The notes: generated by a model from the letters alone, not told the origin. A DNA stretch of 64,000 bases from Patescibacteria group bacterium (GCA_036845805.1 DAIUDD010000001.1:628-64627); one strand, 5' to 3'. Shown: positions 2,570 through 19,468, numbered from the stretch's first letter. Numbers and translations are program-made.

Positions 2570-2718
2570 AATTTTTTTTGAGCAAATAAAAACTCCGCTG
2601 GTTATTAAATGCGGGGTTTTTTGTTTTTTACTTTTTCATCATTGACATTTTTTGTAAATTTGCTATTTTTAAACCAAAACATTCTTTTACATTGAACTTA
2701 AAAATTGGAGAACTTTTC

Positions 2719-3294
2719 ATGAAAAAGCGCCAAAAAATTGTTTATTCAAAAGAGGGGTATAAATTTGTGGTGGCAGAAGAACCGCCGACAACATTCAAAG
2801 ACTCCACCTGGTATTGCTGGGTGGGGCCAAAGGAGCGACCAACTTTTTGGAGCGAAGAAGGCGGCCAAGATTTTCTGCTTGATGGCAAAGCCCATTTAAG
2901 TATTTTGGGCGATGCCAATAAAGCATCGTTTGCCGATAGTCCGGAACCGGGGCGAATGTGGTATTGGCGCTATGATATAAAGTACTTTCGAGAGTGTTCA
3001 CTGTCCTTAACAGGCAAGCGACAAACAGTGGTATTTTCGAAAGACGGCCAAGTCTTTCGGGTGGGCAGTAAGCCGCCAAAAAAGTTTAGGGCCAATCGCT
3101 GGTATTGTTGGTTAGGCCCAAAAAGGCGCCAACCAGGGTGGAACCTAAGTGGCGATATGAATTTTGTGCTTGATAGTAAAGCACACCTCTGTTGTAAAGC
3201 AGAGGATCACTATGCCGCGTTTGTCGATTCTCCCGATCCAGATCGTCTTTGGAATTGGGGAGAATCAATTGAACACTTTCGACAGTGCAAGTAA
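2719..3294 (+). CDS. Hypothetical protein of two tandem ~95-aa repeats (GC-rich)
   Basis: Internal duplication, both repeats ending in Cys: KIVYSKEGYKF..WYCWVGPKERP..DGKAHL..FADSPEPGRMWYW..YFREC matches TVVFSKDGQVF..WYCWLGPKRRQ..DSKAHL..FVDSPDPDRLWNW..HFRQC. RBS ttggag precedes the ATG at 2719. GC is well above background. Confidence 0.5.
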   Translation: MKKRQKIVYSKEGYKFVVAEEPPTTFKDSTWYCWVGPKERPTFWSEEGGQDFLLDGKAHLSILGDANKASFADSPEPGRMWYWRYDIKYFRECSLSLTGKRQTVVFSKDGQVFRVGSKPPKKFRANRWYCWLGPKRRQPGWNLSGDMNFVLDSKAHLCCKAEDHYAAFVDSPDPDRLWNWGESIEHFRQCK

Positions 3295-3329
3295 TTTTTT
3301 TCCCCGACTCTTAAGAGGAGAACAATTCA

Positions 3330-3569
3330 ATGGAAAAAACACAAAAGAGAAAAGTCCAATTTTCTTTTTCAGCCGAAACCGTAAGAGTTTTGTTTTGGCT
3401 GAAGCAAATAACTGGCGCCGCCTCCTGGTCCGAGGTGGTCAGAAACGCTTTGTATGTTTATTGGCAAATAGTCAAAATGATTATTGCTGGAGGAGAAATT
3501 TTTCACTTTGACAAGTCTGGGAAACAAACAAAATTGATTTTTCCCAATATTCACACAAACAGTGAATAA
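3330..3569 (+). CDS. Small protein, possible ribbon-helix-helix DNA-binding fold
   Basis: RBS agaggag 7 nt upstream. The N-terminal beta-strand plus helix pattern KVQFSFSAETVRVLFWLKQITGAASWSEVVRNALYVY resembles RHH. A terminator hairpin gccactttaggaaaggtggc with T-tract follows. Confidence 0.3.
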   Translation: MEKTQKRKVQFSFSAETVRVLFWLKQITGAASWSEVVRNALYVYWQIVKMIIAGGEIFHFDKSGKQTKLIFPNIHTNSE

Positions 3570-3612
3570 AGGGGCCCATACTATTTATTATTAGCCACTT
3601 TAGGAAAGGTGG

Positions 3613-3660
3613 CTTTTTTATTTGCCAAAAGATGTTTAAAGTGGGAAAATTAAGGTATAA
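3613..3660. repeat. ~45-bp direct repeat, copy 1 (tttatttgccaaaagatgtttaaagtggaaaattaa)
   Basis: A near-identical copy lies at 4483-4530. Each follows a terminator hairpin, and together they flank the TonB-like gene. Confidence 0.7.
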
Positions 3661-3701
3661 AAATATTAACAGGCAAGACTCAAAATAAAAGGAGGTGAGC
3701 T

Positions 3702-4436
3702 GTGAAAACTTCAATGGTTGGTATTGGCGCGGTGGAGCTGAAGGCCGTAGCCCAAAAATATATGCTGTGGGCCTTGGTCATTGCTTCACTCATTCATTTG
3801 TCGGTGGTCGGCGCATACTGGGGATCGATTTATCTGGCCAAAGATGAGGAGCCGGTGCGTACTGTCAGAATCATGAAATACACTGACTTGGTTCAGCCGC
3901 CTTCTATTGATCCGACCAGAAATGTGGTGGCGCCAAATGTAGCCATGGCCTCGCCCACGGCTAGGCCCAGCTTGGGAATCCCCGTGCCCGTGCCCGATGC
4001 CGAAGTGAGCCCGGATCAAACTTTTGCTAGTCAACAAGAAATGAATGTCGCCACTGGTCCAGTCACTGATGTGGCCGGATCTGGAGCAGTGCAGATAGAA
4101 AGAGATGTACAAGTTGAAAATATTACCGAAGAGGCACCGCCGCCAGATTTTGTACCGTTTGAGAAAGAACCACAGGTGATCAAACGGATAGAACCGGTTT
4201 ATCCGGAACTGGCGCGCAAAGCCGGTCTCGAAGGCATGGTCTGGGTCAAGCTCTGGGTAGACAAAGAAGGCAAAGTGAAGGATGTGGTTGTCCTGAAAAG
4301 TGCGTCAGAAATTTTCAACCAGCCAGCGATTGAGGCAGCCAAACAATGGATCTTCACGCCAGCCCTCATGAAAACCGGGCCAGTCTCGGTGTGGATCTCT
4401 CTGTCTTTCAGCTTCAAGCTGACGGCGACTAATTGA
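3702..4436 (+). CDS. TonB C-terminal domain protein (energy transducer TonB-like), GC-rich
   Basis: GTG start with aggagg RBS. N-terminal TM segment, Pro-rich linker, and C-terminus PQVIKRIEPVYPELARKAGLEGMVWVKLWVDKEGKVKDVVVLKSASEIFNQPAIEAAKQWIFTPA, the TonB_C fold signature. Confidence 0.65.
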   Translation: MKTSMVGIGAVELKAVAQKYMLWALVIASLIHLSVVGAYWGSIYLAKDEEPVRTVRIMKYTDLVQPPSIDPTRNVVAPNVAMASPTARPSLGIPVPVPDAEVSPDQTFASQQEMNVATGPVTDVAGSGAVQIERDVQVENITEEAPPPDFVPFEKEPQVIKRIEPVYPELARKAGLEGMVWVKLWVDKEGKVKDVVVLKSASEIFNQPAIEAAKQWIFTPALMKTGPVSVWISLSFSFKLTATN

Positions 4437-4482
4437 TTGATCCAATAGAAAAAAGTGGCCGCTCTTTGGGGGAGGAGCGGTT

Positions 4483-4530
4483 TTTTATTTGCCAAAAGAT
4501 GTTTAAAGTGGAAAAATTAAAGTAGTTGGG
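4483..4530. repeat. ~45-bp direct repeat, copy 2
   Basis: ttttttatttgccaaaagatgtttaaagtggaaaaattaaagta, closely matching 3613-3660. Confidence 0.7.
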
Positions 4531-4546
4531 CTAATCAATATATTTT

Positions 4547-4951
4547 ATGTCTAATAGTTATACTTGGTATCAAAATCTAATTAAGCCATTCTTTGCTCCG
4601 CCGAGCTGGCTTTTTGGCCCAGTCTGGAGTGTGCTTTATATATTAATTATTATTTCCTATGGTTATGTTGGTTTTCTGTTTTTCAAACACAAAATCTCTT
4701 TTTTAATTTTTTTACCTTTTATCTTAAATATTATTTTTAATCTGCTTTTTACGCCGCTTCAGTTTGGCTTGAAAAATAATTTTCTCGCCGCCATTGATAT
4801 TCTCTTGGTTTTAGGCACGCTCATTTGGGCCATAATTGCTATTTTCCCTTATGCCAAATGGGTAAGCTATATTAATTTGCCATATTTGCTTTGGGTTTGT
4901 TTTGCCACCGTGTTACAACTTTCGATTACGGTTCTAAATTGGAACCGATGA
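4547..4951 (+). CDS. TspO/MBR (tryptophan-rich sensory protein) family membrane protein
   Basis: WYQNLIKPFFAPPSWLFGPVWSVLYILI matches the TspO N-terminal consensus; several TM segments follow. Confidence 0.55.
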   Translation: MSNSYTWYQNLIKPFFAPPSWLFGPVWSVLYILIIISYGYVGFLFFKHKISFLIFLPFILNIIFNLLFTPLQFGLKNNFLAAIDILLVLGTLIWAIIAIFPYAKWVSYINLPYLLWVCFATVLQLSITVLNWNR

Positions 4952-5011
4952 AAATTTGTATCATGTATTATGTATCATGGATAATGGAAAATAAAAAAGT
5001 TATATAAATAT

Positions 5012-8000
5012 ATGTTTAGGATTCTTTGGTCATTAATTAACCTTAATGCCAGGAAAATATTTTCGCTGACACTTTTTTGTGCCAGCGTTTTTGTTTTTAT
5101 TGTGTTATTATTTTCTAATTATGTTCAAGCCGCCAGCACGGAAGTTTATGGGGTAATGACTACCGATCAGGTTTGGGATAAGGCTCATTCACCCTATGTG
5201 ATTAGTTGGCGCGGTAATGGTTTGATTATTCAAGCAAAATTAACTATTTTGCCTGGCACAGTAATTAAAATTTATGCTAATCGCAATTGGAACGAATATT
5301 TCGGTTTAAAAATTGATGGCGCTAATGGTGGCCAATTGATTGCCGAAGGTACTATCGAAGAACCAATAATTTTTACTTCTTGGTATGATGACGAAATAAT
5401 GGGTGATACCAATAATGACGCTACTTGGTATCAAGCGCCCCAATCCGGTGATTATCGCGCACTTAATTTTTATCAAACAAATAATTCTCATTTAGAAAAT
5501 GTCATTATTAAATATGGTGGCACAGCTCGTAATAATAACAGTACAATTTTGGTAGATAATTCCATTATTAATTTTAATAATTTGAAATTAATAAAAAATT
5601 TGCAGCCAGGAATTGTACTCAAAAACAATAGTCAGGCCACAATAGAAAATCTTGAGGCCGTCGAAAATAAAAATGAAATTTTGCAACTTTATGACGCCAG
5701 TAAGGCAATTTTTGATAATTCTTTAGTGCATAATAATTTTGGTAATAGTGTAATTAAAATTTCTGCCGCGGCTGATTTGTCTGGCACTAATAATTCTTTT
5801 ATTGATAATAGTAATCAAAAAATAATTATTAGCCCCTACGATATTAATCAAACGGTAACTTGGCGAAAATTTGATTTACCATATTATTTAGAAGGACAAA
5901 TTAAAATTACACCCACTGGCCAATTAAATATTAATGCTGGAGTAGAAGCACATTTTGGTTATTATTACAGCCGACTTTTTAATTTAGGCGAATTAAATAT
6001 TATGGGAGCCGCGGCTGCTCCAGTTGTTTTTACTTCTTTCTCTAATAATGCCAGCATTAATAATGATTTTTGGGGTGGCGTGGTTTTTGAAGCGGGCAGC
6101 CGCGGTCAAATTAATTATTTAACCATTAAAGACGCTGGCACTTATGCCGCTGATTGGACCGGTAGTACTTATTTAACTAATGAATATAATGCTTTACGCA
6201 TTACTTCAGCGCATCCAGAATTTAATCATTTAACCATTGATAGCAGTAAAATTAATGGTTTAAACATTACTGATTCTAGCGCACCAGTTATTAATCACTG
6301 TGATATAAAAAATAATTTACAATGGGGTGCAATTAGCAATTCTTCTGCTTTGGTAACTTTTAATAAGTGTTCTTTTATTAACAATACTGCTGGTGCCTTA
6401 CGAAATGATAGCCAAGTGGTGGTTGATGCGCGTGATAGTTGGTGGGGGAGCGAGACTGGACCGAAAACCGGCATTCATTCGCAAGGTCAAGGCTCTCAAA
6501 TTCAAGGCTTGGTTGTTTATGAACCATGGCAGGGCAAAGAAAATTTGCCATTTTCTGATTTAGAACCGGTTATTGTGATCCCGGGCATTACTGGTTCATG
6601 GCAAAAATATATTGTCGCTGGTGAATGGCGCTTGGATCCATTTTTTCATACTTATGATAATTTATTAGCTGCTTTGCGTCAGATTGGTTATCAAGATGAT
6701 GTTAATTTGTTTCCTTTTCCCTATCAATGGCGCCAAGATAATAATTTAACAGCCATTGATTTAAAAAACAAAATCCAAACAGTAAAAAATATTACTGGTA
6801 AAAACAAAGTTGATCTAATAGCTCATTCCATGGGTGGTTTAATAGCACGCGCCTACATTCAAAGCGCCGATTATATGAATGATGTAGATCAGTTAATATT
6901 TCTTGGCACCCCGCAAACTGGTTCGGTTAATGCCTATGTGCCGTGGATGAGTGGCTTAAATTTAGTCAAAGGCAAGAGTGATATTTTTCCACGTTTAACA
7001 AATAAAATTTTTCAGATCGAAGCAGATTATTATGGCTATAATGATTTATTTAATTATGTTCAGGACAAAATTAAAAGTGTAGCACAATTATTGCCAATTT
7101 TTGATTATTTAATTGACAATGAAACAAATATTTTAAGAATTTATCCTGATAATTATCCAGCCAATACTTTTTTAGAAAATTTAAACCAAGCAGCTAATGT
7201 TTTAAAATTAAAACAGCGCGTGCAAATGACTAATGTGGTTAGTAAAACCACCATTACCAATACCGTGGAATTTTTAAAAGTAATGCCTTATCTTGGCGCT
7301 GATGGTAAATGGCCATATGGTTATCCTAATAATTATGATAATGCTAGCGGCGATCATGGTTTAATTATGGGTGAAGGTGATGAAACCGTACCTTTAAAAA
7401 GCGCGGCTGATTTGGATATTTATCCTTTTATTCAAAGTGATGCTAAACACGTTAATTTGCCTACTACTAATCAAAATGACGTTATTTACGCTTTAACTGG
7501 TAAGCAGCCTACCACTATTGTGGAACAAAATAATTTTAATGGTTCAAGCGTCATCAAAGCCTTTTTATTATTTACTTTACATTCACCCATTGATATTGAA
7601 ATCATTGATCCTAGTGGTAATAAAATTGGCAAGGATTTTAATAATAATCTTGAAATTAATAATATTCCCGGCGGTTTTTATTCTGGTTTTGACGGTCCGA
7701 CTGAATTTATTTTTATTCCTAATCCTTTGGCTGGCGAATATAAAATAAATTTACAAGGCACTGCTGATGGCGCTTATGGCGTGGAAATAAATTATAATAA
7801 TGAAAACCAAGAAAAAAATATTATTTTTGAAAGCACTATTCGCGCCGGCGAACTAATTAATTTAACCAGTAATTTGGAACCAGCCAATTTAGATAATTGG
7901 CAAATAAAAACTTCGGTTGATATTAACCAAATTATTAATCTAGCCGAAAATATTTGGTATAAATATTTATGGGCAAAGAAAATTGTTTTGGTTTCTTTAC

Positions 8001-8188
8001 AAAGCATTAAAAAAGATTATGAAATTTTATCAACCGCCATTAAATATGATAGAATTAAATTAAGCATCAGATTAAAAATCGCGGCTTTAAAATTAGTGCT
8101 TAAAACTTATCAAAACCAAGGCCTTATTAAAATCACTGATTATCAAATTTTAATTAATAATTTAAATTATTTATTAAGTAAATTGTAA
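5012..8188 (+). CDS. Large secreted/membrane-anchored protein: beta-helix repeat region plus alpha/beta-hydrolase (lipase-like, GHSMGG) domain
   Basis: N-terminal signal/TM. Repetitive N/S/T-rich segments typical of a right-handed beta-helix. Nucleophile elbow LIAHSMGGLIARAY as in PGAP1-like/lipase class 2. 1058 aa. Confidence 0.55.
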   Translation: MFRILWSLINLNARKIFSLTLFCASVFVFIVLLFSNYVQAASTEVYGVMTTDQVWDKAHSPYVISWRGNGLIIQAKLTILPGTVIKIYANRNWNEYFGLKIDGANGGQLIAEGTIEEPIIFTSWYDDEIMGDTNNDATWYQAPQSGDYRALNFYQTNNSHLENVIIKYGGTARNNNSTILVDNSIINFNNLKLIKNLQPGIVLKNNSQATIENLEAVENKNEILQLYDASKAIFDNSLVHNNFGNSVIKISAAADLSGTNNSFIDNSNQKIIISPYDINQTVTWRKFDLPYYLEGQIKITPTGQLNINAGVEAHFGYYYSRLFNLGELNIMGAAAAPVVFTSFSNNASINNDFWGGVVFEAGSRGQINYLTIKDAGTYAADWTGSTYLTNEYNALRITSAHPEFNHLTIDSSKINGLNITDSSAPVINHCDIKNNLQWGAISNSSALVTFNKCSFINNTAGALRNDSQVVVDARDSWWGSETGPKTGIHSQGQGSQIQGLVVYEPWQGKENLPFSDLEPVIVIPGITGSWQKYIVAGEWRLDPFFHTYDNLLAALRQIGYQDDVNLFPFPYQWRQDNNLTAIDLKNKIQTVKNITGKNKVDLIAHSMGGLIARAYIQSADYMNDVDQLIFLGTPQTGSVNAYVPWMSGLNLVKGKSDIFPRLTNKIFQIEADYYGYNDLFNYVQDKIKSVAQLLPIFDYLIDNETNILRIYPDNYPANTFLENLNQAANVLKLKQRVQMTNVVSKTTITNTVEFLKVMPYLGADGKWPYGYPNNYDNASGDHGLIMGEGDETVPLKSAADLDIYPFIQSDAKHVNLPTTNQNDVIYALTGKQPTTIVEQNNFNGSSVIKAFLLFTLHSPIDIEIIDPSGNKIGKDFNNNLEINNIPGGFYSGFDGPTEFIFIPNPLAGEYKINLQGTADGAYGVEINYNNENQEKNIIFESTIRAGELINLTSNLEPANLDNWQIKTSVDINQIINLAENIWYKYLWAKKIVLVSLQSIKKDYEILSTAIKYDRIKLSIRLKIAALKLVLKTYQNQGLIKITDYQILINNLNYLLSKL

Positions 8189-8214
8189 AATTTTCTTAAT
8201 AGAAAAATAAAAAT

Positions 8215-8717: not shown

Positions 8718-8747
8718 TTGCACTTGTTAATAATTAACCTATTTTTT

Positions 8748-9071: not shown

Positions 9072-9349
9072 TGAAAAAAAAGAAACCGGCTTTGCGATGG
9101 AGAGTGTGGCTCAGTTTGTCCTTTTTCGTTTTGGGGCTAGTTGTTCAGCTAGTCTACAAAACCGTGGAAGGACCGACACTGGGTGCCATCGCCGCACAGC
9201 AGGCTCAGAACAGCGATGTGGCTTATGCCAAATCGCACTTTTTCATCAACATGGTCACGATTCCCGGCGCCGTCTGGACTGGAATTTTTATCATCCTGGC
9301 TCTGACATGGATCACATACGCCGTGGCTTTTTATCGGACCGCGAAGTGA
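9072..9349 (+). CDS. Small membrane protein (GC-rich)
   Basis: GTG start with ggagg RBS, two TM helices, and upstream promoter ttgaca-17-taagct at 8974. The ORF-track start at 8993 is probably an upstream extension. Confidence 0.4.
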
Positions 9350-9374
9350 ACCAAAACAAAGGAGTGGAAAAGCT

Positions 9375-10373
9375 ATGAAAAAGAGTATGTTGGTCGTCAC
9401 CATGGTCGTGCTGTTTTCGATCCTTTTCGCTTGCGCGCCATATAAAACTCCGATCTTTGTGGAGATCCAGCCCAACGAAACGGCGTTCCTAGTACCCATG
9501 GAAGGAGCCACAAAAGATAATCAAGCTGCTTTTATGAGTGAAGATTATCTCCGTGATGCCAAGGTGGCTTTAAAGAGAATAGAAATTCCTCAACGCCAAG
9601 TGAGCACAGGACGTATGTGGTGGAGTGAAAAATGGATCCCCACGATGCGCGTTATTGTTGTCAATCGCACACCCGTTACTCGTGAATGGACAGTTGATTC
9701 AAACACCGGGACAAGCACGAAAAACGAAGCTTTGGCTACATCATCCAAGGAGTCCATTCCATTTTATGTCGGTTTAACCATTACCGCCTCAATTTTGGAA
9801 GAAGATGCTCCTCGTTTTTTATACCGATACGCCGGTTCGTCATTGGCGGATGTATTGGATAATAACGTTCGAGGCACCACTCTTGCCAAACTTTCCGATA
9901 ATTTTGGAAAGCTAACGGTTGATCAATGCCGGCTTAATAAGAGTGAAATCGTTGGCAAAATTTTTCAGGAAGTCTCCCTGAAGTATAAAGAAGAAGGTGG
10001 AATAACTATTGATGCCATGGGCACCTCCGGGTCATTAGTTTTCTTGGATGAAAATATTCAAACGCGTGTTAACGCAGTGTTCATTGCTGAACAAAACATC
10101 CAAGTGCAAATGAATGAAAAACTGGCACAGGAGGAAACCAATAAAAAGGTTAAGTCCATTGCCGAGACGCGCCTTTATGAGGCCCAGAAATTCGCGGCAG
10201 CCCAGAATGCCACCAACGATATGGTAAAACTGGAAATCCAAAAAATGGGTGCCCAGGCCATGCTCAATGTTTCCGAAGGCATGAGAGACGGCAAGCTCCA
10301 ATTGCCATCCAACATGCTGCCGATTGGTAGTCAACTCCTTTTCGGGATTGACTCCAAGCCGGCTCAAAAGTAG
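9375..10373 (+). CDS. Lipoprotein with coiled-coil C-terminal region (possibly SPFH/band-7-like), GC-rich
   Basis: Signal peptide with lipobox LFAC, then a long Ala/Gln/Glu-rich region EAQKFAAAQNATNDMVKLEIQKMGAQAM. A terminator follows at 10396-10430. Confidence 0.35.
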   Translation: MKKSMLVVTMVVLFSILFACAPYKTPIFVEIQPNETAFLVPMEGATKDNQAAFMSEDYLRDAKVALKRIEIPQRQVSTGRMWWSEKWIPTMRVIVVNRTPVTREWTVDSNTGTSTKNEALATSSKESIPFYVGLTITASILEEDAPRFLYRYAGSSLADVLDNNVRGTTLAKLSDNFGKLTVDQCRLNKSEIVGKIFQEVSLKYKEEGGITIDAMGTSGSLVFLDENIQTRVNAVFIAEQNIQVQMNEKLAQEETNKKVKSIAETRLYEAQKFAAAQNATNDMVKLEIQKMGAQAMLNVSEGMRDGKLQLPSNMLPIGSQLLFGIDSKPAQK

Positions 10374-10479: not shown

Positions 10480-11712
10480 ATGAATTTAATTACTTCCTTT
10501 AAAACCGCAGTCAAAATCTTACGCACTAATCGGCGCCGGACTTTTTTAACCGTGCTTGGCATTATTATTGGCGTGGCCGCCGTGATTATTATTATGTCGG
10601 TTGGCGCTGGCGCTCAAAGTTTAATTTTTGATCAATTTAGTTCTTTTGGCTCTAATTTAATTAGCGTCATGCCCGGTTTTAGCGATGAAAAAGGACCGCC
10701 TGCCTCTGTTATGGGTATTGTCGTTACCACCTTAAAACAAAGCGATGCGGAAGAATTAAAAAAAATTAAAGAAATAGAAAGCGTGGCCAGTTATGTTCGT
10801 GGCATTGATACTATTACTTGGCAAAACCGCGAGGTTGATGCCACTTTTGTTGGCACCAACGTTGATTATGTGGCAGTGGAATCAGTTAAAATTGAACGCG
10901 GTAATTTTTTTGATGAAAGCGATGAAAAAAGTTTAGCGCGCGTGGCGGTTTTAGGCTATCAGGTGGCCGAAGATTTATTTGGCAATCAAAATCCGGTTGG
11001 CGAAGAAATAAAAATAAAACGTGAACGTTTTCGAGTGATTGGCGTCGTAGCCAAAAGGGGAGTGGAAGCGTTTCAAAATCAAGACAATTTAGTTTTCGTG
11101 CCACTGTTAACCGCTCAAAAAATATTACTGGGCATTGATCATGTTAATATGATTCGCGCGCGCGTTTTTAATGATAGCGATGTGCCAGTAGCTATTGAAC
11201 AAATCGAACAAATTTTACGCGCCAATCATGATATTTTTAGTCAAGATGAAGATGATTTTAGTGTTCGTGCCGCTATTCAAGCCCTTGATGCTTTAAAACA
11301 AGTAACCGATGCTCTGACTTTGTTTTTAGCCGCCATTGCCGCTATTTCGCTTTTAGTCGGCGGAGTCGGTATTATGAATATTATGCTCGCCTCAGTAACT
11401 GAACGGACCAAAGAGATTGGTTTGCGCAAAGCCATCGGCGCCACTGCCAATGGCATTCAAAATCAATTTTTAACCGAAGCCGTGGTGATTACAGTCGTGG
11501 GCGGCGCTACTGGTATTGCTTTTGGTTTTTTATTTTCTGGCCTGATTGCTTTGGTGGCTAATTATTTAGGTTATAATTGGCAATTTGTTATTACCCTTTC
11601 TTCTGTTTTATTAGGTCTTGGTGTGTCTTCCTTGGTTGGCATTATTTTTGGCTGGTATCCAGCTCGCCGCGCCGCTCGTCTCGAACCTGTCGAAGCACTG
11701 CGGTATGAATAA
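10480..11712 (+). CDS. ABC transporter permease, MacB/FtsX family
   Basis: N-terminal TM, MacB periplasmic domain, and C-terminal FtsX four-helix region (LLVGGVGIMNIMLASVTERTKEIGLRKAIGA). Confidence 0.85.
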   Translation: MNLITSFKTAVKILRTNRRRTFLTVLGIIIGVAAVIIIMSVGAGAQSLIFDQFSSFGSNLISVMPGFSDEKGPPASVMGIVVTTLKQSDAEELKKIKEIESVASYVRGIDTITWQNREVDATFVGTNVDYVAVESVKIERGNFFDESDEKSLARVAVLGYQVAEDLFGNQNPVGEEIKIKRERFRVIGVVAKRGVEAFQNQDNLVFVPLLTAQKILLGIDHVNMIRARVFNDSDVPVAIEQIEQILRANHDIFSQDEDDFSVRAAIQALDALKQVTDALTLFLAAIAAISLLVGGVGIMNIMLASVTERTKEIGLRKAIGATANGIQNQFLTEAVVITVVGGATGIAFGFLFSGLIALVANYLGYNWQFVITLSSVLLGLGVSSLVGIIFGWYPARRAARLEPVEALRYE

Positions 11713-11831
11713 TAAAAATTTAAAATTCAAAAATCAAAAATTAAAATTACAATTTAAAATCATTAAAATTTTTAAAAAATTTTAATACTTTAATTTTGAC
11801 TTTTGCCTTTTAACTTTTGTTTTTATTTTTT

Positions 11832-13079
11832 ATGTCTTTTCTCTCTACTCTCCATATTGCTTATCGTGCTATCAGATTGCACAAAGTCCGTTCGGTTTTA
11901 ACCGTACTCGGTCTTTTAATTGGCGTCATGTCTATTATTATTGTCATGAATGTCGGGCAGGGTTTAAAAGGTTTAATTTTAGATTATATAAAAATTTTTG
12001 GCTCGGATTATGTGCAAGTGGAAACAAAAGTTCCTACTACCGCTAGAAATTCAGCTGACAACGCTACTAGCATGGCCCAAGGCGTGACCGTTACCACTAT
12101 GAAAATTTCTGATGCCGAGGCGGTTGGTCGTCATCCTAATGTCAAAGGCTACTATGCTGGTCAGATGGGCCAGGCCGTGGCTTCCTATTTAGACGAGAAA
12201 AAAACCGCCATGCTTTGGGGTATTTCCAGCAGTTTTTTTACTTTATCTGAAGCCAAGGTGGAAGCGGGTCGCGAATTTAGTGATGAAGAGGATCGTTCTC
12301 AGGCACGGGTAGTTGTTTTGGGCGCCAACTTAAAAGAGAAACTTTTTGGTTCTGATGACGCTTTGGAAAAATATATAAAAATTGGTAATAAAAATTTTAA
12401 AGTTATTGGCGTTTTGGAAAAACAAGGCGGCAGCATGTTTTTTGACATGGATTCAATTGTTTTTATGCCGGTCAGAACTTTGCAAAAACAAATTATGGGT
12501 GTTGATCATATTCAATTTTTTACTGTTTATTTAAAAGATGCCAGTCAGGCCTATGCCACCGCTGCCGAGATCGAAGATATTTTAAGAGCCGAACATAAAA
12601 TTACTGATCCTAAAAAAGATGACTTTTCTGTCACCACTATGGACGAGGCCATGGGCATGTTAAATACTGTCACTGGTGGCATTTCACTTTTGCTTGTTGC
12701 TATTGCCGCTATTTCTTTAATTGTCGGTGGGGTCGGTATTATGAATATTATGTATGTTTCGGTGACTGAGCGTACTTATGAAATTGGTTTAAGAAAAGCC
12801 TTGGGCGCCACTAGCAAAAATATTTTATGGCAATTTTTATGGGAAGCGATTTTTTTAACTTTTTTAGGCGGTTTGATTGGTGTTTTTCTGGGTACGATTT
12901 TTAGTTTTCTCGGCGCCATAGCCGCTAAATCCGCCGGCTTTGATTTGGGCTTGAATTTTTCTTTAACTGGTTTTATTTTAGGCACGGTTTTTTCCGCCAC
13001 GGTCGGTTTGATTTTTGGCGTTTATCCGGCGCGCAAAGCCGCCGCTTTGGATCCGGTCGAAGCGTTGAGACAAGAATAA
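11832..13079 (+). CDS. ABC transporter permease, MacB/FtsX family (paralog)
   Basis: Same architecture, with LIVGGVGIMNIMYVSVTERTYEIGLRKALGA. ATG at 11832 preferred over the upstream TTG. Confidence 0.85.
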   Translation: MSFLSTLHIAYRAIRLHKVRSVLTVLGLLIGVMSIIIVMNVGQGLKGLILDYIKIFGSDYVQVETKVPTTARNSADNATSMAQGVTVTTMKISDAEAVGRHPNVKGYYAGQMGQAVASYLDEKKTAMLWGISSSFFTLSEAKVEAGREFSDEEDRSQARVVVLGANLKEKLFGSDDALEKYIKIGNKNFKVIGVLEKQGGSMFFDMDSIVFMPVRTLQKQIMGVDHIQFFTVYLKDASQAYATAAEIEDILRAEHKITDPKKDDFSVTTMDEAMGMLNTVTGGISLLLVAIAAISLIVGGVGIMNIMYVSVTERTYEIGLRKALGATSKNILWQFLWEAIFLTFLGGLIGVFLGTIFSFLGAIAAKSAGFDLGLNFSLTGFILGTVFSATVGLIFGVYPARKAAALDPVEALRQE

Positions 13080-13253
13080 AATGTATTATGATTTTTGTAG
13101 GGGTGGGTTTAAAACCCACCCTTTTGTTTTTATCAATATTTCAATATTTTATTTGTAGAGACAAAAAATTTTTGCCCTCCTTGCTCCATTTTTATTGAAG
13201 GCGGGGTTCCGGAACCCCGCCTTCACAACAGGACAGCTCCAGAGCCGCTCTAC

Positions 13254-13280
13254 ATTTTTTGTAACTCTGGTCTTCCCGCC
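13254..13280. repeat. Direct repeat ttttttgtaacYctggtctt, copy 1; copy 2 at 13590-13615
   Basis: tacattttttgtaactctggtcttcccgcc matches attatttttttgtaaccctggtctttaacc; the pair flanks the putative ncRNA locus. Confidence 0.5.
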
Positions 13281-13350
13281 CCGCCGTCTGGCAGGTAGAC
13301 CGGATTTTTTTAAAGCTTGACAAAAAAAACGCTTATGCTAAGATAGTTTT

Positions 13351-13548
13351 AGAAAGATTTTTAAAAAGGCACATCGTCCCAGCGGGTGTGTGCTAGTACT
13401 GCGAACAGCTGGGTATGGGACAGAGGTAGCCTTACTCTGCTCCAGAACGGCTATAAGGCTGCAGCCCGTCTAAGGTGTGCCCTTGCTGGACGGGAATAAG
13501 ATGGCGCGGCACAACGCCCAGGCGAAACATGCCTGGGCTTTTTTTATT
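13351..13548 (+). ncRNA. Candidate structured small RNA (~200 nt, GC-rich) with its own promoter and intrinsic terminator; identity unknown
   Basis: Promoter ttgaca-16-taagat at 13317-13344. Multiple internal hairpins (ggctgcagcc, gggacagagg/ctctgctcc, cgtcccagc/gctggacg). Terminator cccaggcgaaacatgcctggg plus T7 at 13516-13546. No ORF. Confidence 0.45.
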
Positions 13549-13685
13549 CTGTCATAATTATATACTTCATTTTTTTATTTTTGATTTATAATTATTTTTT
13601 TGTAACCCTGGTCTTTAACCGGAGTTTTTAAAAATAAAAAAGCCGAGGTGTGCGCCTCGGCTGTATTGCTACTAACTATGTTAGA

Positions 13686-14237
13686 TTAGAAGAGGAAATC
13701 CAACCCCACATAGCTTTTGTCTTTCATCAAGGTCCCCCAGACCTTAATTTTTTTAGAGGAAAACTCGACGCGCGGGCCAGTACGACGGCCAACGCCAACG
13801 ACCGTTTCGTTGAGGGCACCAACGCCGAGCGTTTTCCAAACTTGGCAATTGGCGATTTGGCGATGCCAGTAGCCGTTTCCGGCTTCATAGAAGCCGATGA
13901 ATGAGATCGGTCCCTTCCCCAACCAAATAAAACTCCCATAACGGTTGGGGTCGGCACCGTTTTGGATGCCGTAGGCCAGGCCCATTTGGCACCAAGATGT
14001 CGGCGCGAGCGACGGACCCGCGTAAGCCTCGGCCCAATATTGACTGATGAGGGCCCATCCCCACCAGCCAATTTTGCCAACCAGAGATCCGCCAACCGAA
14101 ATGTCGATCTGGTTGGCAACCTTGAGGTCACTTCCCGCGGGTTTGGTAAGGCCCGATTGGACCTCAACGAAATTCTGCGCGGTCGCCACTGCAACCAGCG
14201 CCAGAATCATCGCCAAAACTTCCATCATTTTTTTCAT
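13686..14237 (-). CDS. Small outer-membrane beta-barrel protein (OmpW/OmpX-like), GC-rich
   Basis: Signal peptide MKKMMEVLAMILALVAVATA-QNF. Alternating hydrophobic strands and a C-terminus YVGLDFLF with terminal Phe (BAM beta-signal). Terminator gccgaggtgtgcgcctcggc on the minus strand. 183 aa. Confidence 0.6.
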   Translation of the reverse strand: MKKMMEVLAMILALVAVATAQNFVEVQSGLTKPAGSDLKVANQIDISVGGSLVGKIGWWGWALISQYWAEAYAGPSLAPTSWCQMGLAYGIQNGADPNRYGSFIWLGKGPISFIGFYEAGNGYWHRQIANCQVWKTLGVGALNETVVGVGRRTGPRVEFSSKKIKVWGTLMKDKSYVGLDFLF

Positions 14238-14482
14238 TTTTCCCTCCTTGGGAATTAAATTATTATCTGTGATTTATATTTAAAATTATTTTTTCATTTA
14301 AAAAAACTCTTCCACAAAGAAGAGCGCATATTGGCCGAAATTAGCCAAATTATTTCTCTTCTCTTGTAACTATATTATAGCAAATTCACAGAAAATGTCA
14401 ATACCTAATCTGTGTATAAAACAAAAAAATGACTTTCATTAGCCATTTTTTTATATTTTATTTTTATCTCTATAAATCTTTT

Positions 14483-15190
14483 TTATTTAATTAATCCTGC
14501 CTTTCTCCTTTCTATTACTTTTTCATCACTCATAATTTCTCCGTCTTTTAATTTAATAATCCGCTCGGCATATTCGGCCGTATATTGTTCATGAGTGACT
14601 AAAATAATTGTTTTGCCTTGCTCATGTAATTTGTTTAAAATTTGCATCACCTGTTCGCCAGATTTTGAATCCAAATTACCGGTTGGTTCGTCCGCAAAAA
14701 TAAGTGCTGGTTGATTAACCAAAGCTCGGGCAATGGCCACCCTTTGTTTTTCCCCGCCCGATAATTGGTTAGAAAGATTTTCTATTCTGTGTGTTAAATC
14801 CACTGCTTCGACTGCTTGCCTCGACATTTTTTCTTTTTCTGCTGGTGTTAAATTGGGCGTGTAAGTCAGCGGCAATTTAACATTTTCTAAAACCGAAGTG
14901 CGCGGCAATAAATTAAATTGCTGAAAAACAAAACCAATTTCCGCATTGCGCAAGGCCGCTAATTTTTCATCACTAAATTCCGCTGTATTTTCGCCCTTAA
15001 AAATATAGGCGCCCTTGGTCGGTCGGTCTAAGAAACCCAAAATATGCATTAAGGTCGATTTGCCTGAACCAGATTTTCCCATAATCGCCACAAACTCGCC
15101 TTGATTGATGGAAAAATTTAAATCAAACAAAACTGGCGTCACCACTTCATCATTCACATAATCTTTAAATAAGTTTTTAGCTTCGATTAA
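14483..15190 (-). CDS. ABC transporter ATP-binding protein (MacB/LolD-type ATPase)
   Basis: Walker A GKSGSGKST, signature LSGGEKQRVAIARAL, Walker B LIFADEPT. Probable start at MLIEAKNLFKDY. Confidence 0.9.
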   Translation of the reverse strand, partial: LIEAKNLFKDYVNDEVVTPVLFDLNFSINQGEFVAIMGKSGSGKSTLMHILGFLDRPTKGAYIFKGENTAEFSDEKLAALRNAEIGFVFQQFNLLPRTSVLENVKLPLTYTPNLTPAEKEKMSRQAVEAVDLTHRIENLSNQLSGGEKQRVAIARALVNQPALIFADEPTGNLDSKSGEQVMQILNKLHEQGKTIILVTHEQYTAEYAERIIKLKDGEIMSDEKVIERRKAGLIK

Positions 15191-15340
15191 CATTTTTTTA
15201 ATTTCCAAGATACAATTTTCAATTTCCAAATAAGTATCAAATTTCAATAACCAAATTTAAATTATTGGGGATTATAATTTGATTTTTGTAATTTATTTGG
15301 AAATTGTTTCTTGATTATTGGAATTTACTAAAGGTTAATT
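15190..15340. repeat. AT-rich palindromic intergenic repeat, copy 3 (reverse orientation)
   Basis: ccaagatacaattttcaatttccaaataag...tttatttggaaattgtttcttgattattggaatttac sits between the HlyD stop and the ATPase start. Confidence 0.55.
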
Positions 15341-17029
15341 TTTTACAAACGTTATTACTTCTTCTCCCGCCTGCAAACCAGAAATAATTTCTATGCCCTC
15401 ATTACCTTTTAAACCAATTATTACTGTTTTATCTGCAGTGATATTTTTTTTAGCATCAACCAAAACAGTGACATATTTATCGCCATTTTGACTTTTCACT
15501 GCTCTTCCCGGCACCACCAAAACCTGATCTTTTTTAGCTGTGCAAATGGTTACATTAGCGGTCATGCCCGGCTTGACGCCGATTGCTGTTTGATCATTAA
15601 ATTGTACTGTCACTTTATAATAAACCACGTCTTGGATTTCTGTTTCGGCCGGATCAACAAAAACCACCTGGCCCATAAATTTTTGATCTGGCCCAAAAGC
15701 GTCCAAGGTAATTTCTACTTCTTGGCCGACTTGCACTTTGGCAATATCCGATTCGGGAATATCTACTTTTATTTCCAAATTGGTTTTGCCAATCATTTCT
15801 AAAACCGGTGTAGTTAATAATGATTGTTCGCCCACTGAAAAATTTTTCTTGGTAATAGTGCCATCAACCGGCGCAACAATTATCGCATCATTAAAATTGG
15901 CGCGGGCTAAAGCTAAACTGGCGCTGGCTTGCGCCACTCGTGCTTCGGCTGATTTAATATCATAGCTTTGGGCCGGTTTCTTTTTTAGCAGCAATTCTGC
16001 CTCGGCAATGGTCAGGGCTTTTTGAGCGCTCGCCACCGAATTTTCAGCTGAAGCAATTAGATCTTCGTAATAACTTATTTTATTAAGCCAGCTGGCTTTA
16101 GCACTTTGCAAGGTGGAATTGGCTGTATTAATGGCGGTTTGTCTGGTTTTGATATTAGTTTTTAAAGCGTCTAATTCGGTTTCGCTTAAATCAGCAGAAG
16201 TGGTCGTGGCGCCTAAGACATCTAAAGTATCAGCCAAGGCGGTAGCAATTTTGTTAAGCACATTTTTTAAATTGTCACTTATAATTTTCAAATCTTCCGT
16301 ACCAACTGTCAGCTCTAAAGTGTTAATAGTATTTTTTATTTCCTCATAAGCTGTTTGGGCCACAATTTTATTTGTTTCGGCAATATTTAATAACTCTTTG
16401 TTTTTTATTGATAAGGTTCCTTGAGCATCAGTATCATTTAAAGAATTATCAATTTCTTCCAAAGCCGCTTGGGCCGTAACCAATTCATTTTTAAGTGTGG
16501 TAATCAAAGCGTCTTTCAAATTATTTATTTCCACCGCCCCTTTGCTTTTGGTAGTATTTAAATTACTTTCCGCGTTTAATAATTCTTGTTCTTTTTGTAC
16601 TACTCTATCTTCATAAACTTTAATATCTTCAGCCGTGGCCCCGGCTTTTATTTTTTCATAATCAGCTTGAGCTTGTCTGACCGCTGCTTCCGCGTTAGTA
16701 ATTTGACTAGCTAAAGCGCCAGTATCTAAACTGGCTAATTTTTGATTTGCCACCACCTTGTCACCGGCTTTGACTAGAATTTCTTTAATCCGACCAGTAG
16801 TTTTAAAGTTTAAATTAATGGCTTGGGCTGAAGCCACTTGTCCGGTTACATCTACGGTTTGTTTTAAAGTCATAATTTCTACTTTGGCCGTGGTATAGGT
16901 GATGGTTTGGCCGGATTTTTTAGCGCGATAAACTAGACCGATAATTATAATTAAAATTATTAAGCCGATAATCACAAATTTTTTGCGGAATATTTTTAGC
17001 ATATTTTTATAAAAAATTATTATTGCCAT
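15335..17029 (-). CDS. HlyD/MacA-family periplasmic adaptor (membrane fusion protein)
   Basis: N-terminal TM, long coiled coil, and C-terminal beta-barrel/lipoyl-like region (VAPVDGTITKKNFSVGEQ...). 564 aa. Confidence 0.8.
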   Translation of the reverse strand: MAIIIFYKNMLKIFRKKFVIIGLIILIIIIGLVYRAKKSGQTITYTTAKVEIMTLKQTVDVTGQVASAQAINLNFKTTGRIKEILVKAGDKVVANQKLASLDTGALASQITNAEAAVRQAQADYEKIKAGATAEDIKVYEDRVVQKEQELLNAESNLNTTKSKGAVEINNLKDALITTLKNELVTAQAALEEIDNSLNDTDAQGTLSIKNKELLNIAETNKIVAQTAYEEIKNTINTLELTVGTEDLKIISDNLKNVLNKIATALADTLDVLGATTTSADLSETELDALKTNIKTRQTAINTANSTLQSAKASWLNKISYYEDLIASAENSVASAQKALTIAEAELLLKKKPAQSYDIKSAEARVAQASASLALARANFNDAIIVAPVDGTITKKNFSVGEQSLLTTPVLEMIGKTNLEIKVDIPESDIAKVQVGQEVEITLDAFGPDQKFMGQVVFVDPAETEIQDVVYYKVTVQFNDQTAIGVKPGMTANVTICTAKKDQVLVVPGRAVKSQNGDKYVTVLVDAKKNITADKTVIIGLKGNEGIEIISGLQAGEEVITFVKN

Positions 17030-17286
17030 ATTATAGCTAATTTTACATCTTTTTGCAAGTTTTTTATAAATTTGACAAAGTATTTTTATTGTGCTATTAT
17101 TTTTTTACAAAATTAAGAAGTTCTTTAAAAAATAGCCCAAAAACGGGTTAATTTTGTTAAATAAAAAGGAGGTTAAAGGAAAAGAAAAAAATGTTTTTCC
17201 TGCAGGAAACTACTTTTGGGTGGGGATTTTTAATTCGTGAGTTATGTTATGTAAAGAAAAAAGAAAGTTGTAAAACGGAGGTTAAG

Positions 17287-19422
17287 ATGAAAAAGTTTTT
17301 GTTGTTTTTTGCGGTTGTACTGGCGTTTGCTACTTTGTTGTTAGCAGCGCCTCCTGGTGGCAATTCCGGCGCCATTTGGACCACCCGCGGAGACTGCGGT
17401 GATGAAACCAAAGACGCCAATCACTACAAAATTGGTGATCATATTTTTCTCAATGGGCACCAGTTTGATCCCGGCGAGTATGAATGGGAAATAAAAGGCC
17501 AGCCGGGCAATGCTAGTTGCGATCACGGCGACGTCGTCGCGAGTGGTGCATTTACCATTAGCGAAGAAGACAGTGGCGGGTTTTGCTTCGAGGCATATAC
17601 TGTGGCCGAAGATGACTGCGGCGAATATCAAGTCAAATTCGGCAACAAAGGCGACAATTATCGGGTTGAATTGCCACCACCCCCGCCTAACCCTGCCATC
17701 GACATCGAAAAGCTGGTACAAGGTGAAGACGCCGACGTGCCCACCGGTCCTGTTGTGACCGTCGGTGCAACCGTCACGTTTTCATTCATCATCACCAACA
17801 TCGGCGATGTGCCTTTGACCAACATCGTGGTCACGGATAATATCTATGGCACGATCACCCTGCCCAAGACCAGCCTGGAGGCTGGCGAATCCATGACCGG
17901 TTCGACGACCGCAATGGCCGTCGCGGGCCAGCACACCAACACCGCCACGGTGACGGGCAACTACGAAGCGCAGACCGTGACGGACGCGGATCCCGCCAAC
18001 TACTGGGGCGAAACAATGATCGAGCACCATCCTGGCATCGACCTCGAGAAACTGGTACAGGGTGAGGATGCGGATACGCCCACCGGCCCGAATGTGACAG
18101 TTGGCGCCATGGTAACCTTCCAGTTCGTTGTCACCAACACCGGCGATGTGCCGTTGACCAACATTGTGGTCACGGATGATGTCTATGGTACGATAACCAT
18201 GCCAAAGAGCAGTCTGGCTGTGGGTGAATCCATGACCGGCTCGACTGCCGCGGTGGCCGTCGCAGGCCAGCACACCAATATGGCAACCGTCACTGGTAAT
18301 TATGAAACACAAACCGTGACGGATCAGGACCCAGGTAATTACTGGGGAGAGACAAAGCGGCTGCCCCTTGGGGTACACGTGGAGTGCGTGGACAAATATG
18401 TTTTCCGTGATACATATCGGGTACACTTTATTGTTAATAACGCAAACCCGTATGAAGTTCAAATTGGGCTCGGAGCATTTAACAATATTGCTCCAATTGA
18501 GTATGATGGAAAACAGCCAACATCTTTTGGGCCAGGCAAAACCGAATATTTTCTTGAGGTGCCCAATGATGTTTTAGTGAGCTGGTTTCTCGATGTTGAT
18601 TTTGCCATGGCATCAAGAAACTCGGAAATCTGCAAATACGCCGGTACCGACGATGTTGTTGTCGCCGGAATCGGTGTGTATAAAGACGTCAATACAAATG
18701 GTCTATACGATGTCGGGGAGGATTGGATAGAGGCTGATGACCGTGGATTCATGGCTGAGGTTTACATGATTAACGCTTGGACAGGCGAGGTCGTTGGTTC
18801 ACATGCATTGTCTCCGACATTGTTCTTCCGTGCTGGGCGGTATGTTAATTACAGTTTCCGCCAAAAATGGGGCGAGTTTTATATTTTGGCGAAAACTAAA
18901 ATGCCGACCCCATCAGGATATAGGCTTTATCCAAATTACCGAGTCGTGCGCACCAGCGAGTTTCCGGAGCCGTTTTACTCGCTGGAAAATGATTTCGGCC
19001 TAGTGCCGGAATCATTTGAAGGTCCGCTGGACGGCCCATACTTGCCGATGTTGGCGGAATATTTGCCAGCGAGCGCAACTTTGGCTTATCGGGCGCAGTC
19101 ACAGCAGGCTAAGGGTAAGCTGAAAACCGAAGAAGGGATTGGGATCGCGGCTTTGCCCACCGAATTCCAACTGGAGCAGAACTATCCCAACCCGTTCAAT
19201 CCGACCACTACGATCGCCTATGATCTGCCGGCAAGCGGCCAGGTGACGTTGAAGATTTACGATGTATCCGGCCGTGAGGTTGCTGCGCTGGTGAATGAAC
19301 AGCAGCCCGCCGGCCACTACTCGGTCACCTGGCGTGCCGATCACCTCGCCAGTGGCATTTATTTCTATTGCCTCCAGGCCGGGTCGTTCAGTCAGACCAA
19401 ACGTCTGGTTCTAACTAAATAA
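17287..19422 (+). CDS. Secreted protein with two DUF11/conserved-repeat domains and a T9SS C-terminal sorting domain (Por_Secre_tail), GC-rich
   Basis: Signal peptide MKKFLLFFAVVLAFATLLLA. Two tandem repeats at about 80% identity (IDIEKLVQGEDADVPTGP...TNIVVTD). C-terminus NYPNPFNPTTTIAYDLPASGQVTLKIYDVSGREVAALVNEQQPAGHYSVTWRA..ASGIYFYCLQAGSFSQTKRLVLTK matches the type-A T9SS CTD. Confidence 0.75.
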   Translation: MKKFLLFFAVVLAFATLLLAAPPGGNSGAIWTTRGDCGDETKDANHYKIGDHIFLNGHQFDPGEYEWEIKGQPGNASCDHGDVVASGAFTISEEDSGGFCFEAYTVAEDDCGEYQVKFGNKGDNYRVELPPPPPNPAIDIEKLVQGEDADVPTGPVVTVGATVTFSFIITNIGDVPLTNIVVTDNIYGTITLPKTSLEAGESMTGSTTAMAVAGQHTNTATVTGNYEAQTVTDADPANYWGETMIEHHPGIDLEKLVQGEDADTPTGPNVTVGAMVTFQFVVTNTGDVPLTNIVVTDDVYGTITMPKSSLAVGESMTGSTAAVAVAGQHTNMATVTGNYETQTVTDQDPGNYWGETKRLPLGVHVECVDKYVFRDTYRVHFIVNNANPYEVQIGLGAFNNIAPIEYDGKQPTSFGPGKTEYFLEVPNDVLVSWFLDVDFAMASRNSEICKYAGTDDVVVAGIGVYKDVNTNGLYDVGEDWIEADDRGFMAEVYMINAWTGEVVGSHALSPTLFFRAGRYVNYSFRQKWGEFYILAKTKMPTPSGYRLYPNYRVVRTSEFPEPFYSLENDFGLVPESFEGPLDGPYLPMLAEYLPASATLAYRAQSQQAKGKLKTEEGIGIAALPTEFQLEQNYPNPFNPTTTIAYDLPASGQVTLKIYDVSGREVAALVNEQQPAGHYSVTWRADHLASGIYFYCLQAGSFSQTKRLVLTK

Positions 19423-19468
19423 AATAACAAATCGTCTTTTGGAGGAAAGACGATTACATCTCATTAAG

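Follow-up and report, generated by a model that had tools for sequence, protein, structure and literature searches.

In their textbook roles TonB, β-barrels of the type handled by the β-barrel assembly machinery (BAM) and cargo of type IX secretion systems (T9SS) need an outer membrane. The genes captured by candidate phyla radiation (CPR) bacteria have mostly been described as informational or metabolic. Horizontal transfer into Patescibacteria is documented; the donors include Bacteroidota and Omnitrophota, and most transfers take place within the phylum (PMC12455944). For the genomic islands described in that work, donors and recipients that occur together were read as hinting at a host relationship. 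Here we analysed a stretch of 64,000 nt from a Patescibacteria group bacterium (GCA_036845805.1, DAIUDD010000001.1:628-64627; hereafter the window), in which genes for a TonB protein, a β-barrel and a protein with a T9SS C-terminal sorting domain (T9SS-CTD) stand out by their GC content. Probably, these genes and a few others are separate foreign gene captures located around a native efflux operon, carrying outer-membrane-linked cargo into a CPR genome.

The GC content of the whole window is 37.1%. In sliding windows of 400 nt it peaks at 0.485-0.585 in the regions 2.8-3.2, 3.6-4.4, 9.0-10.4, 13.2-14.2 and 17.2-19.4 kb, while the DNA adjoining these five peaks lies at 0.22-0.38. The third codon position is least constrained by the protein sequence, and its GC content (GC3) was therefore compared with a background of 55 window genes (0.325 ± 0.053, maximum 0.45). 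Between 2.7 and 19.4 kb there are six genes with GC3 values of 0.43-0.64, about 2-6 standard deviations above this background. These are tonB (3702-4436, plus strand; GC 0.52, GC3 0.54, z 4.1), the gene of a 183-aa barrel protein (13686-14237, minus strand; GC 0.54, GC3 0.64, z 5.8), the T9SS-CTD gene (17287-19422, plus strand; GC 0.52, GC3 0.58, z 4.7), a 332-aa lipoprotein gene (9375-10373, plus strand; GC3 0.48, z 2.9) with its 93-aa membrane protein neighbour (9097-9378, plus strand; GC3 0.43, z 1.9), and the gene of a 191-aa protein (2719-3294, plus strand; GC 0.47, GC3 0.44, z 2.2). The pair encoding the 93-aa and 332-aa proteins (9097-10373) has a GC content of 0.50 and 0.45. Since the spacers beside the six genes are AT-rich (GC 0.24-0.35), the compositional boundary lies essentially at the edges of the open reading frames (ORFs). 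No comparable GC enrichment was found in the ribosomal protein genes of the window. An earlier note, made from the sequence alone, had described GC-rich islands in an AT-rich background with promoters and terminators of their own. The islands are borne out by sliding-window GC and by the GC3 of single genes, and promoter-like and terminator-like sites indeed flank the tonB, barrel and T9SS-CTD genes.

The case is clear for tonB, which by its sequence relationships appears to be an import from a diderm lineage of 56-57% GC that comprised the ORF only. Both TonB profiles match the product above their curated cut-offs (PF03544 TonB_C, 68 bits with a cut-off of 24.6; TIGR01352, 58.4 bits with a cut-off of 27.1), in agreement with the C-terminal domain assigned to it before. 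Its hydrophobic N-terminal segment YMLWALVIASLIHLSVVGAYW and a stretch rich in Pro, Val and Ala (residues 65-150) can each be aligned with donor TonBs. Homologs with 68-79% protein identity form a tight group on contigs of up to 2 Mb, and TonBs labelled Bacteroidota, Ignavibacteriae or KSB1 reach 55-62%. In two of the donor-type contigs (L017, 56% GC; L018, 57% GC, 1.0 Mb) the gene order is STAS-ExbB-ExbD-ExbD-TonB-PBP, close to a TonB-dependent receptor and sigma-54 regulators, and L018 additionally encodes MlaD and a Por_Secre_tail protein. The window TonB shares 72-78% of its amino acids with such operon-encoded TonBs. Contigs of the tonB donor type are on record as JGI 3300040733 Ga0439193_000004 and Logan SRR5819576_2576. 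Judging from its gene content, this close donor-type lineage is a diderm, T9SS-bearing one related to the Fibrobacterota-Chlorobiota-Bacteroidota (FCB) group.

At the DNA level the window and L017 are 73% identical over 717 nt. This similarity is confined to the tonB ORF; hence, neither the ExbD genes nor those downstream came along. The neighbours of tonB in the window are a 79-aa gene and TspO, and neither ExbB nor ExbD was found beside tonB or among the annotated window proteins. Donor-type tonB genes have a GC3 of 0.69-0.70, compared to 0.54 in the window. When the substitutions were polarised with two donor-type sequences, the window branch carried 66 GC→AT changes versus 22 AT→GC changes (39 versus 12 at third positions), while the donor branches were balanced (15:18 and 28:22). 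Such a bias is the decay expected in an AT-rich recipient and thus fixes the direction of transfer. About 40% of the synonymous sites have changed on the window branch, where the ratio of nonsynonymous to synonymous changes (pN/pS) amounts to 0.21 for the whole gene and to 0.08 for the C-terminal domain. The window TonB, chiefly its C-terminal domain, is under purifying selection, with some share of this branch being donor time.

Among the islands only tonB has flanking repeats. The direct repeats noticed earlier are present as 44 nt with 95% identity (3614-3657 and 4481-4524). On the plus strand, the left copy begins within the T-tail of the terminator that precedes it (3593-3614) and contains a promoter-like TTGCCA-17-GAAAAT just 5' of tonB and its ribosome-binding site (RBS). 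Downstream of tonB a terminator-like GC-rich hairpin (4457-4482, plus strand) is followed by the right copy, which provides the native TspO gene (4547-4951) with its promoter-like region. Consequently, tonB lies between two copies of a native terminator-tail/promoter segment, and tonB and TspO each own a promoter-like copy.

The recipient is very likely Patescibacteria/CPR-like, as suggested by its backbone genes. In a comparison of the native MacB2 permease with one genome per species, the best matches (38-52% identity) came nearly all from Patescibacteria (Falkow-, Buchanan-, Magasanik-, Komeili-, Kerfeld- and Nomurabacteria, 'Patescibacteria group'), whereas relatives from Bacteroidota reached 35-38% only. 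Furthermore, the window encodes a 577-aa TrwB/HerA-like coupling protein of a type IV secretion system (T4SS) with a treble-clef zinc finger. T4SSs are described as widespread in Patescibacteria and of monoderm type (PMC12102498). The AT-rich, CPR-like background genome postulated before is therefore supported by the closest MacB2 relatives and by the coupling protein. The source genome is small, with a contig of at least 722 kb. Adjacent to the coupling protein gene lies the gene of a 479-aa protein that has no family match and looks membrane-like by eye; the genes at 38963-42145 may be part of a chromosomal T4SS. Among the Patescibacteria that are closest in MacB2, there are also many records of metagenome-assembled genomes (MAGs) titled 'uncultured Gammaproteobacteria bacterium' (SRP..._co / binchicken; loci L024, L025, L035, L038 and others). 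These titles are probably placeholder mislabels.

The efflux backbone has native composition throughout. It consists of two MacB-type ABC permease genes (10480-13079, plus strand), followed by an ABC ATPase and a HlyD/YknX-type adaptor (14483-17029, minus strand) as its remainder. The permease genes are syntenic with a sister CPR genome of 34% GC (L012; GCA_964498445.1), in which the backbone TspO - MacB1 - MacB2 - ABC - HlyD - PF1765 is conserved at 53-80% identity (TspO 33%). At the site of the barrel gene L012 has a 346-nt spacer only, and the gap between HlyD and PF1765, which accommodates the T9SS-CTD gene, measures 95 nt in L012 and 4 kb in the window. With two insertion points empty in a related genome, the proposed nature of the islands as insertions of foreign composition gains support. 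No homolog of the barrel, TonB, T9SS-CTD, 191-aa or 332-aa proteins was detected in 80 MacB neighbourhoods from Patescibacteria and Bacteroidota. The island-rich region (0.7-21.3 kb) is bracketed by tRNA genes, namely tRNA-Val (668-744) and tRNA-Gly (21299-21373).

The T9SS-CTD gene encodes a secreted product of 711 aa. Its signal peptide and N-terminal domain are followed by two DUF7507/DUF11 repeats, a middle domain and, at the C-terminus, a sorting domain of T9SS type A. The sorting domain (residues 665-740) passes the curated cut-offs of both PF18962 Por_Secre_tail (40.5 bits, cut-off 27) and TIGR04183 (45.5 bits, cut-off 23), which confirms the original assignment. From the ATG at 17287 the protein starts with MKKFLLFFAVVLAFATLLLA, in which a Sec signal can be read. 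The gene unit (17072-19493, plus strand) includes a promoter-like site at 17072-17100 and a terminator at 19466-19493. The protein appears to be a mosaic, each domain being closest to a different homolog. Its N-terminal domain is 77% identical to P0029, 66-68% to P0116 and 25% to P0007; the middle domain shares 55-57% with P0007 and 50-51% with P0062; for the sorting domain the values are 61% to P0116, 59% to P0029 and P0062, and 52% to P0007. P0062 and P0116 belong to genomes of 59% GC and themselves have a GC3 of 0.68-0.74, further homologs are on short contigs, and P0062 stems from the same sample as the donor-type tonB contig L018. The sequence relationships point to a gene pool of 59% GC as the probable origin of the T9SS-CTD gene. 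As a separate observation, one of these 59% GC genomes, the one with P0116 (L022:972-7500; GCA_002327255.1, DCUM01000069), has genes for GatD and GatE of archaeal type, both scoring above the NCBIfam cut-offs. These genes adjoin MetF-like and PF12225 (DUF5981) genes, which is unusual in a bacterium with T9SS-type cargo.

P0007 is a GC-rich homolog from the sister genome L012, where its GC3 is 0.53 compared to 0.20-0.34 for the neighbouring genes. Its gene is not located downstream of HlyD, but upstream of MacB beside a tRNA, which follows directly downstream (L012:8700-9259). The N-terminal domains of the two CPR proteins share 25% identity, and the L012 middle domain is 57% identical to the window copy and 56% to a non-CPR homolog. 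Since the architectures and the sites differ, the mutual identity is not closer than that to outside homologs, and GC3 is high in both copies despite the divergence of the genomes, two independent captures are favoured. For the same reasons, a single ancestral acquisition shared by the window and L012 was rejected as the leading view. The repeated acquisition envisaged in the earlier note thus finds support in a sister lineage with a differently built homolog at another site.

The 183-aa protein is predicted, in a confident model, to form a closed antiparallel 12-stranded β-barrel of the outer-membrane type. It has a Sec signal and ends with ...LDFLF. The gene unit (13641-14401, minus strand) has a promoter at 14401-14374 that fits the consensus in 12 of 12 positions, a strong RBS and a terminator at 13662-13641. 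Of the OmpW/OmpX-like barrel with a C-terminal Phe proposed earlier, the barrel fold and the Phe end stand, but the barrel has 12 strands and not the 8 of OmpW/OmpX. The protein matches no Pfam or NCBIfam family. A Pfam scan of 72 members of its family yielded no outer-membrane protein (OMP) family and three stray single-member matches only, and a search of solved structures (PDB) with the family profile found no solved OMP. A word-index search had returned one relative only; the family is defined by an exhaustive HMMER search, which identified 362 representatives (E ≤ 0.001). Among the best 150, with a median length of 184 aa, 104 end with Phe, 131 have a signal-like N-terminus according to a crude rule, and the strands alternate between hydrophobic and polar residues. 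In these features the family behaves like BAM substrates.

The two nearest relatives of the barrel (51% and 47% identity) are located on contigs of 35% and 32% GC, and their GC3 of 0.30-0.32 is native there. A relative with 37% identity in a MAG named 'Patescibacteria group bacterium' at NCBI (L104) lies between FtsK and a UPF0102-family gene, near NusA, and is also native (GC3 0.24). Another one with 40% identity is native (GC3 0.67) to a genome of 51% GC (L105) that has two adjacent T4SS pilin genes; arrays of T4SS pilin genes have been reported for Patescibacteria (PMC12102498). L020 holds a further family member of native composition. No diderm context was seen in the four or five contexts read. 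When species-representative genomes were scanned with a barrel alignment, no match was confirmed; apparently, the host genome with this gene is missing from that set. Provisionally, these four or five contexts suggest that the family is resident in Patescibacteria. The relatives have native composition in genomes that are AT-rich or labelled Patescibacteria; they give no indication of a diderm donor, and the barrel can no longer be taken as evidence for one. Most likely the window copy is a transfer from a higher-GC member of Patescibacteria. This agrees with published work, in which other members of the phylum are the source of most transfers into Patescibacteria (PMC12455944).

The 332-aa protein carries the lipobox LFAC and matches phrog_200 'lipoprotein' with an E-value of 1.5e-8. 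In a tblastn search against phages it was 38.5% identical to gp65 of Bacillus phage G over 95% of its length, while scans of metagenome contigs and viral contigs gave no confirmed relatives. By these matches, the 93-aa and 332-aa genes form a phage-type lipoprotein module that is not diderm-specific. Hence, the island at 9072-10373 is GC-rich and includes a lipobox protein as described, but its supposed diderm-type character is not retained. The 191-aa protein consists of two tandem repeats of about 95 aa, the halves being 46% identical, and has no signal peptide. Searches of Pfam, NCBIfam, PHROGs, PDB and phages gave no match. The adjacent 79-aa gene (3330-3569, plus strand), ribbon-helix-helix-like by eye, has a native GC content of 0.37 and a weak match to phrog_8557 (E 1.6e-5). 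For the island at 2719-3569, the tandem repeats and the GC-richness of the 191-aa gene were therefore verified, whereas the 79-aa gene is not GC-rich and the pair lacks an envelope signature. Taken over all islands, a diderm donor related to the FCB group is retained for tonB, and bacteria of 56-59% GC are the source of tonB and probably of the T9SS-CTD gene. A diderm donor is not retained for the barrel, the lipoprotein module or the 191-aa/79-aa pair.

Several alternatives were weighed against separate captures of genes that are probably still in use. First, the islands might be non-functional, transient cargo of promiscuous DNA uptake that is heading for loss. The partners ExbBD, T9SS and BAM are not visible among the annotated window genes, the islands differ between the sister lineages, and CPR genomes readily take up DNA (PMC12455944), all of which fits this explanation. 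Nevertheless, we regard it as unlikely, because every ORF has full length, the promoter-like and RBS signals are strong, including the fully consensual promoter of the barrel gene, and the genes are identical in all samples. Furthermore, the low pN/pS on the tonB branch was maintained despite extensive synonymous change, and the capture of T9SS-CTD genes in two lineages suggests selection.

A second, similarly unlikely explanation is that Patescibacteria, although regarded as single-membraned, keep a toolkit of OM-type proteins at the contact zone with a diderm host, or that the clade has a layer resembling an outer membrane. One part of such a toolkit may be the resident, Sec-exported 12-stranded barrels with their BAM-like C-terminal signal; the other may be a TonB with a conserved C-terminal domain and adhesin-like proteins with T9SS sorting domains that are repeatedly captured from T9SS-bearing neighbours. 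Possible uses are nutrient pores formed by the barrels in the outer membrane of the host, or host-mimicking domains that dock on envelope machinery.

A third alternative, a true outer membrane or OM-like layer in which TonB, the barrel and the T9SS cargo act in their canonical roles, is improbable. Three different types of OM-linked proteins are kept intact, tonB is under purifying selection, and a barrel family with Sec signals and Phe ends like those of BAM substrates is resident in several Patescibacteria-like genomes. On the other hand, tonB lacks the exbB and exbD genes that flank donor tonB genes, and neither BamA nor a TonB-dependent receptor or T9SS gene is present among the annotated genes of the 64-kb window. 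The adaptor of the efflux operon is of the YknX/HlyD type, and the neighbouring ORFs that were annotated include no gene for an OM factor. In the literature, Patescibacteria are proposed to have no outer membrane and a T4SS of monoderm type (PMC12102498; PMC8871954). Given a tonB acquired without ExbBD, and with no sign of partner genes in the annotated parts of the window, canonical TonB, BAM or T9SS roles are unlikely, and energy transduction of the usual kind by the captured TonB is doubtful.

That the genes are native and GC-rich because of amino-acid composition or codon selection is very improbable. In favour of this view, the encoded proteins have a high content of Gly, Ala, Pro and Val, the sister genome too has a T9SS-CTD homolog that is GC-rich, and barrel-family members are native in other Patescibacteria. 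However, the excess is found in GC3, which is mostly free of protein constraint, ribosomal protein genes of the window are not GC-rich alike, and sites are empty in the sister genome. In addition, the nearest tonB relatives lie in ExbBD-TonB operons of diderms with 56-57% GC, and the window copy is drifting from GC to AT.

Finally, exact-protein look-ups retrieved 11 contigs (L001-L011) out of JGI, ENA and Logan assemblies, in which at least 10 samples are represented; one contig (JGI 3300010355, Ga0116242_10000005) is 722 kb long. They stem from three assemblers, the ENA contig names being SPAdes-style and MEGAHIT-style, and are 99.9-100% identical to the window at the nucleotide level through every island junction. 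The source bacterium is one clonal, widespread population in many metagenomes of the anaerobic-digester type. Because the junctions are reproduced across independent contigs and several assemblers, they are real and no assembly artefact, as the earlier note had argued. An assembly or binning chimera, in which GC-rich reads of co-occurring bacteria were misjoined into an AT-rich contig, would account for the abrupt compositional steps at gene edges and for donor relatives in similar sample series, but is effectively refuted by these recurring junctions, by the gene-sized insertions behind native-looking promoters and by a tonB copy whose DNA, with changes biased GC→AT, is 27% diverged from the closest gene of the donor type, where a chimera would be donor-identical.

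Thus, separate captures remain the probable explanation. Some observations weigh against it or narrow it. The middle domains of the two CPR T9SS-CTD proteins are, at 57%, marginally each other's best match, so that a single old acquisition with subsequent domain shuffling is possible. Part of the tonB branch lies in an unsampled donor lineage, and selection is therefore not wholly assignable to residence in the CPR genome; none of the databases contains the exact donors, and for tonB the best match reaches 78%. The taxonomic range of the barrel family comes from four or five contexts only, and many members have an amino-acid composition that points to some kind of host with higher GC. The ORFs scanned at 0.8-26.5 kb included no integrase or transposase, so the mechanism of insertion is deduced indirectly.

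With these points in mind, the following course of events can be proposed. DNA was probably imported from neighbouring or host cells and integrated by illegitimate recombination. Several foreign fragments of one or two genes each were inserted around the native MacB/HlyD efflux operon. tonB was captured without its partners and set between the copies of the native TspO terminator-tail/promoter segment. Independently, the sister CPR lineage would have taken a different member of the T9SS-CTD family of adhesin-like proteins. The 12-stranded barrel would have been passed on from higher-GC Patescibacteria, and the lipoprotein module from a phage. The captured proteins in this scheme all carry Sec signals or membrane anchors. 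Presumably, the fragments that persisted are those encoding Sec-exported or membrane-anchored proteins able to work without their original machinery. Their export probably runs through the Sec system of the CPR cell itself, and they are probably retained for a role at the surface, in adhesion or in cell contact. If displayed on the CPR surface, they are candidate molecules for the recognition or tapping of hosts by ultra-small epibionts. In that case, their nearest homologs point to the host or neighbour, namely genomes of 56-59% GC from similar habitats that bear T9SS where the context is readable. The 12-stranded barrel family also bears on the question whether every Patescibacteria lineage has a single membrane.

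The spacer between MacB2 and the barrel gene (13080-13685) contains two GC-rich stretches (0.54-0.55). The non-coding stretch at 13317-13545 (plus strand, GC 0.54) is framed by a promoter-like site (13317-13344) on one side and a terminator-like hairpin (13516-13538) on the other. A structured RNA had been proposed at 13350-13560, but this was not substantiated, since there is no Rfam match and the fold is no stabler than that of shuffled sequences (z -1.5 and -1.1 for the two strands). An apparent SprD match within 13060-13720 (Rfam, gathering and E-value modes) was rejected; the region contains two terminator hairpins instead. No sequence similar to the GC-rich 195-nt spacer was found in L012 or the other loci. 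The stretch at 13317-13545 may be a small RNA unit of about 170 nt or leftover foreign DNA. On the minus strand of the MacB2-barrel spacer the motif GACCAG(A/G)GTTACAAAAAA occurs twice (13255-13290 and 13595-13625), and 34 nt at 13192-13225 recur with 88% identity at 37597-37630; both may be short dispersed repeats. On a contig of 43% GC (L016:922-1400), two GC-rich, hairpin-rich stretches with terminator tails are located 5' of a barrel-family gene. They resemble the window spacer in layout and have no sequence similarity to it.

Of the smaller GC-rich genes listed in the earlier note, 59495-59680 deviates strongly and 42845-43042 moderately (GC 0.42, GC3 0.56), whereas 62498-63357 does so only mildly. 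The first (minus strand; GC 0.52, GC3 0.71) encodes a predicted membrane peptide of 61 aa beside tRNA-Pro (59917-59991) and looks like another gene-sized foreign insertion. Except for the tRNA, an Rfam scan of 59250-60250 in gathering and E-value modes found nothing. Two genes of the backbone deserve mention. A 1058-aa secreted protein (5012-8188) of native composition combines a right-handed β-helix with an α/β-hydrolase domain of lipase/LCAT type, and by this domain composition could be a host-membrane-attacking enzyme of an epibiont. SecD (34779-36464) bears an inserted PPIC-type peptidyl-prolyl isomerase domain at residues ~150-240.

Each cargo can be compared with a known counterpart. The window TonB has the membrane anchor, the Pro-rich linker and the TonB_C domain in common with TonBs of FCB-type ExbB-ExbD-ExbD-TonB operons, but is detached from ExbB/ExbD and found in a lineage that presumably has neither an outer membrane nor TonB-dependent receptors. 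The donor-type contigs, in contrast, carry ExbBD, TonB-dependent receptors and T9SS cargo. As in T9SS type-A cargo (Por_Secre_tail/TIGR04183, DUF11/DUF7507), a Sec signal, Ig-like repeats and a β-sandwich sorting domain are present in the window protein; however, it is encoded in a Patescibacteria-like genome with no T9SS component among the annotated window genes. The 12-stranded porins KdgM and NanC are alike in fold only (8-12% identity, no profile match in Pfam, NCBIfam or PDB), and the contexts of the window barrel family are so far Patescibacteria-like genomes rather than diderms. With phage lipoproteins (PHROG 200, gp65 of Bacillus phage G) the 332-aa protein shares the lipobox and a nearly full-length alignment, but its gene is chromosomal and there are no other phage genes among the scanned neighbouring ORFs.

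A literature search found no report of outer-membrane-linked cargo captured by Patescibacteria, of related T9SS-CTD captures in two sister lineages or of an unannotated OM-type barrel family in Patescibacteria-like genomes. The closest described system is that of the Patescibacteria genomic islands, which like those of the window are compositionally foreign segments in reduced CPR genomes, with donors of Bacteroidota type and from Patescibacteria (PMC12455944). The published islands comprise multiple genes, whereas the insertions in the window are single ORFs behind native-looking promoters with no integrase among the scanned ORFs. Moreover, the window cargo is linked to the outer membrane, and that paper does not mention TonB or an outer membrane. 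Hence, the class of mechanism, horizontal transfer into Patescibacteria, is already known, and the envelope cargo appears to be new.

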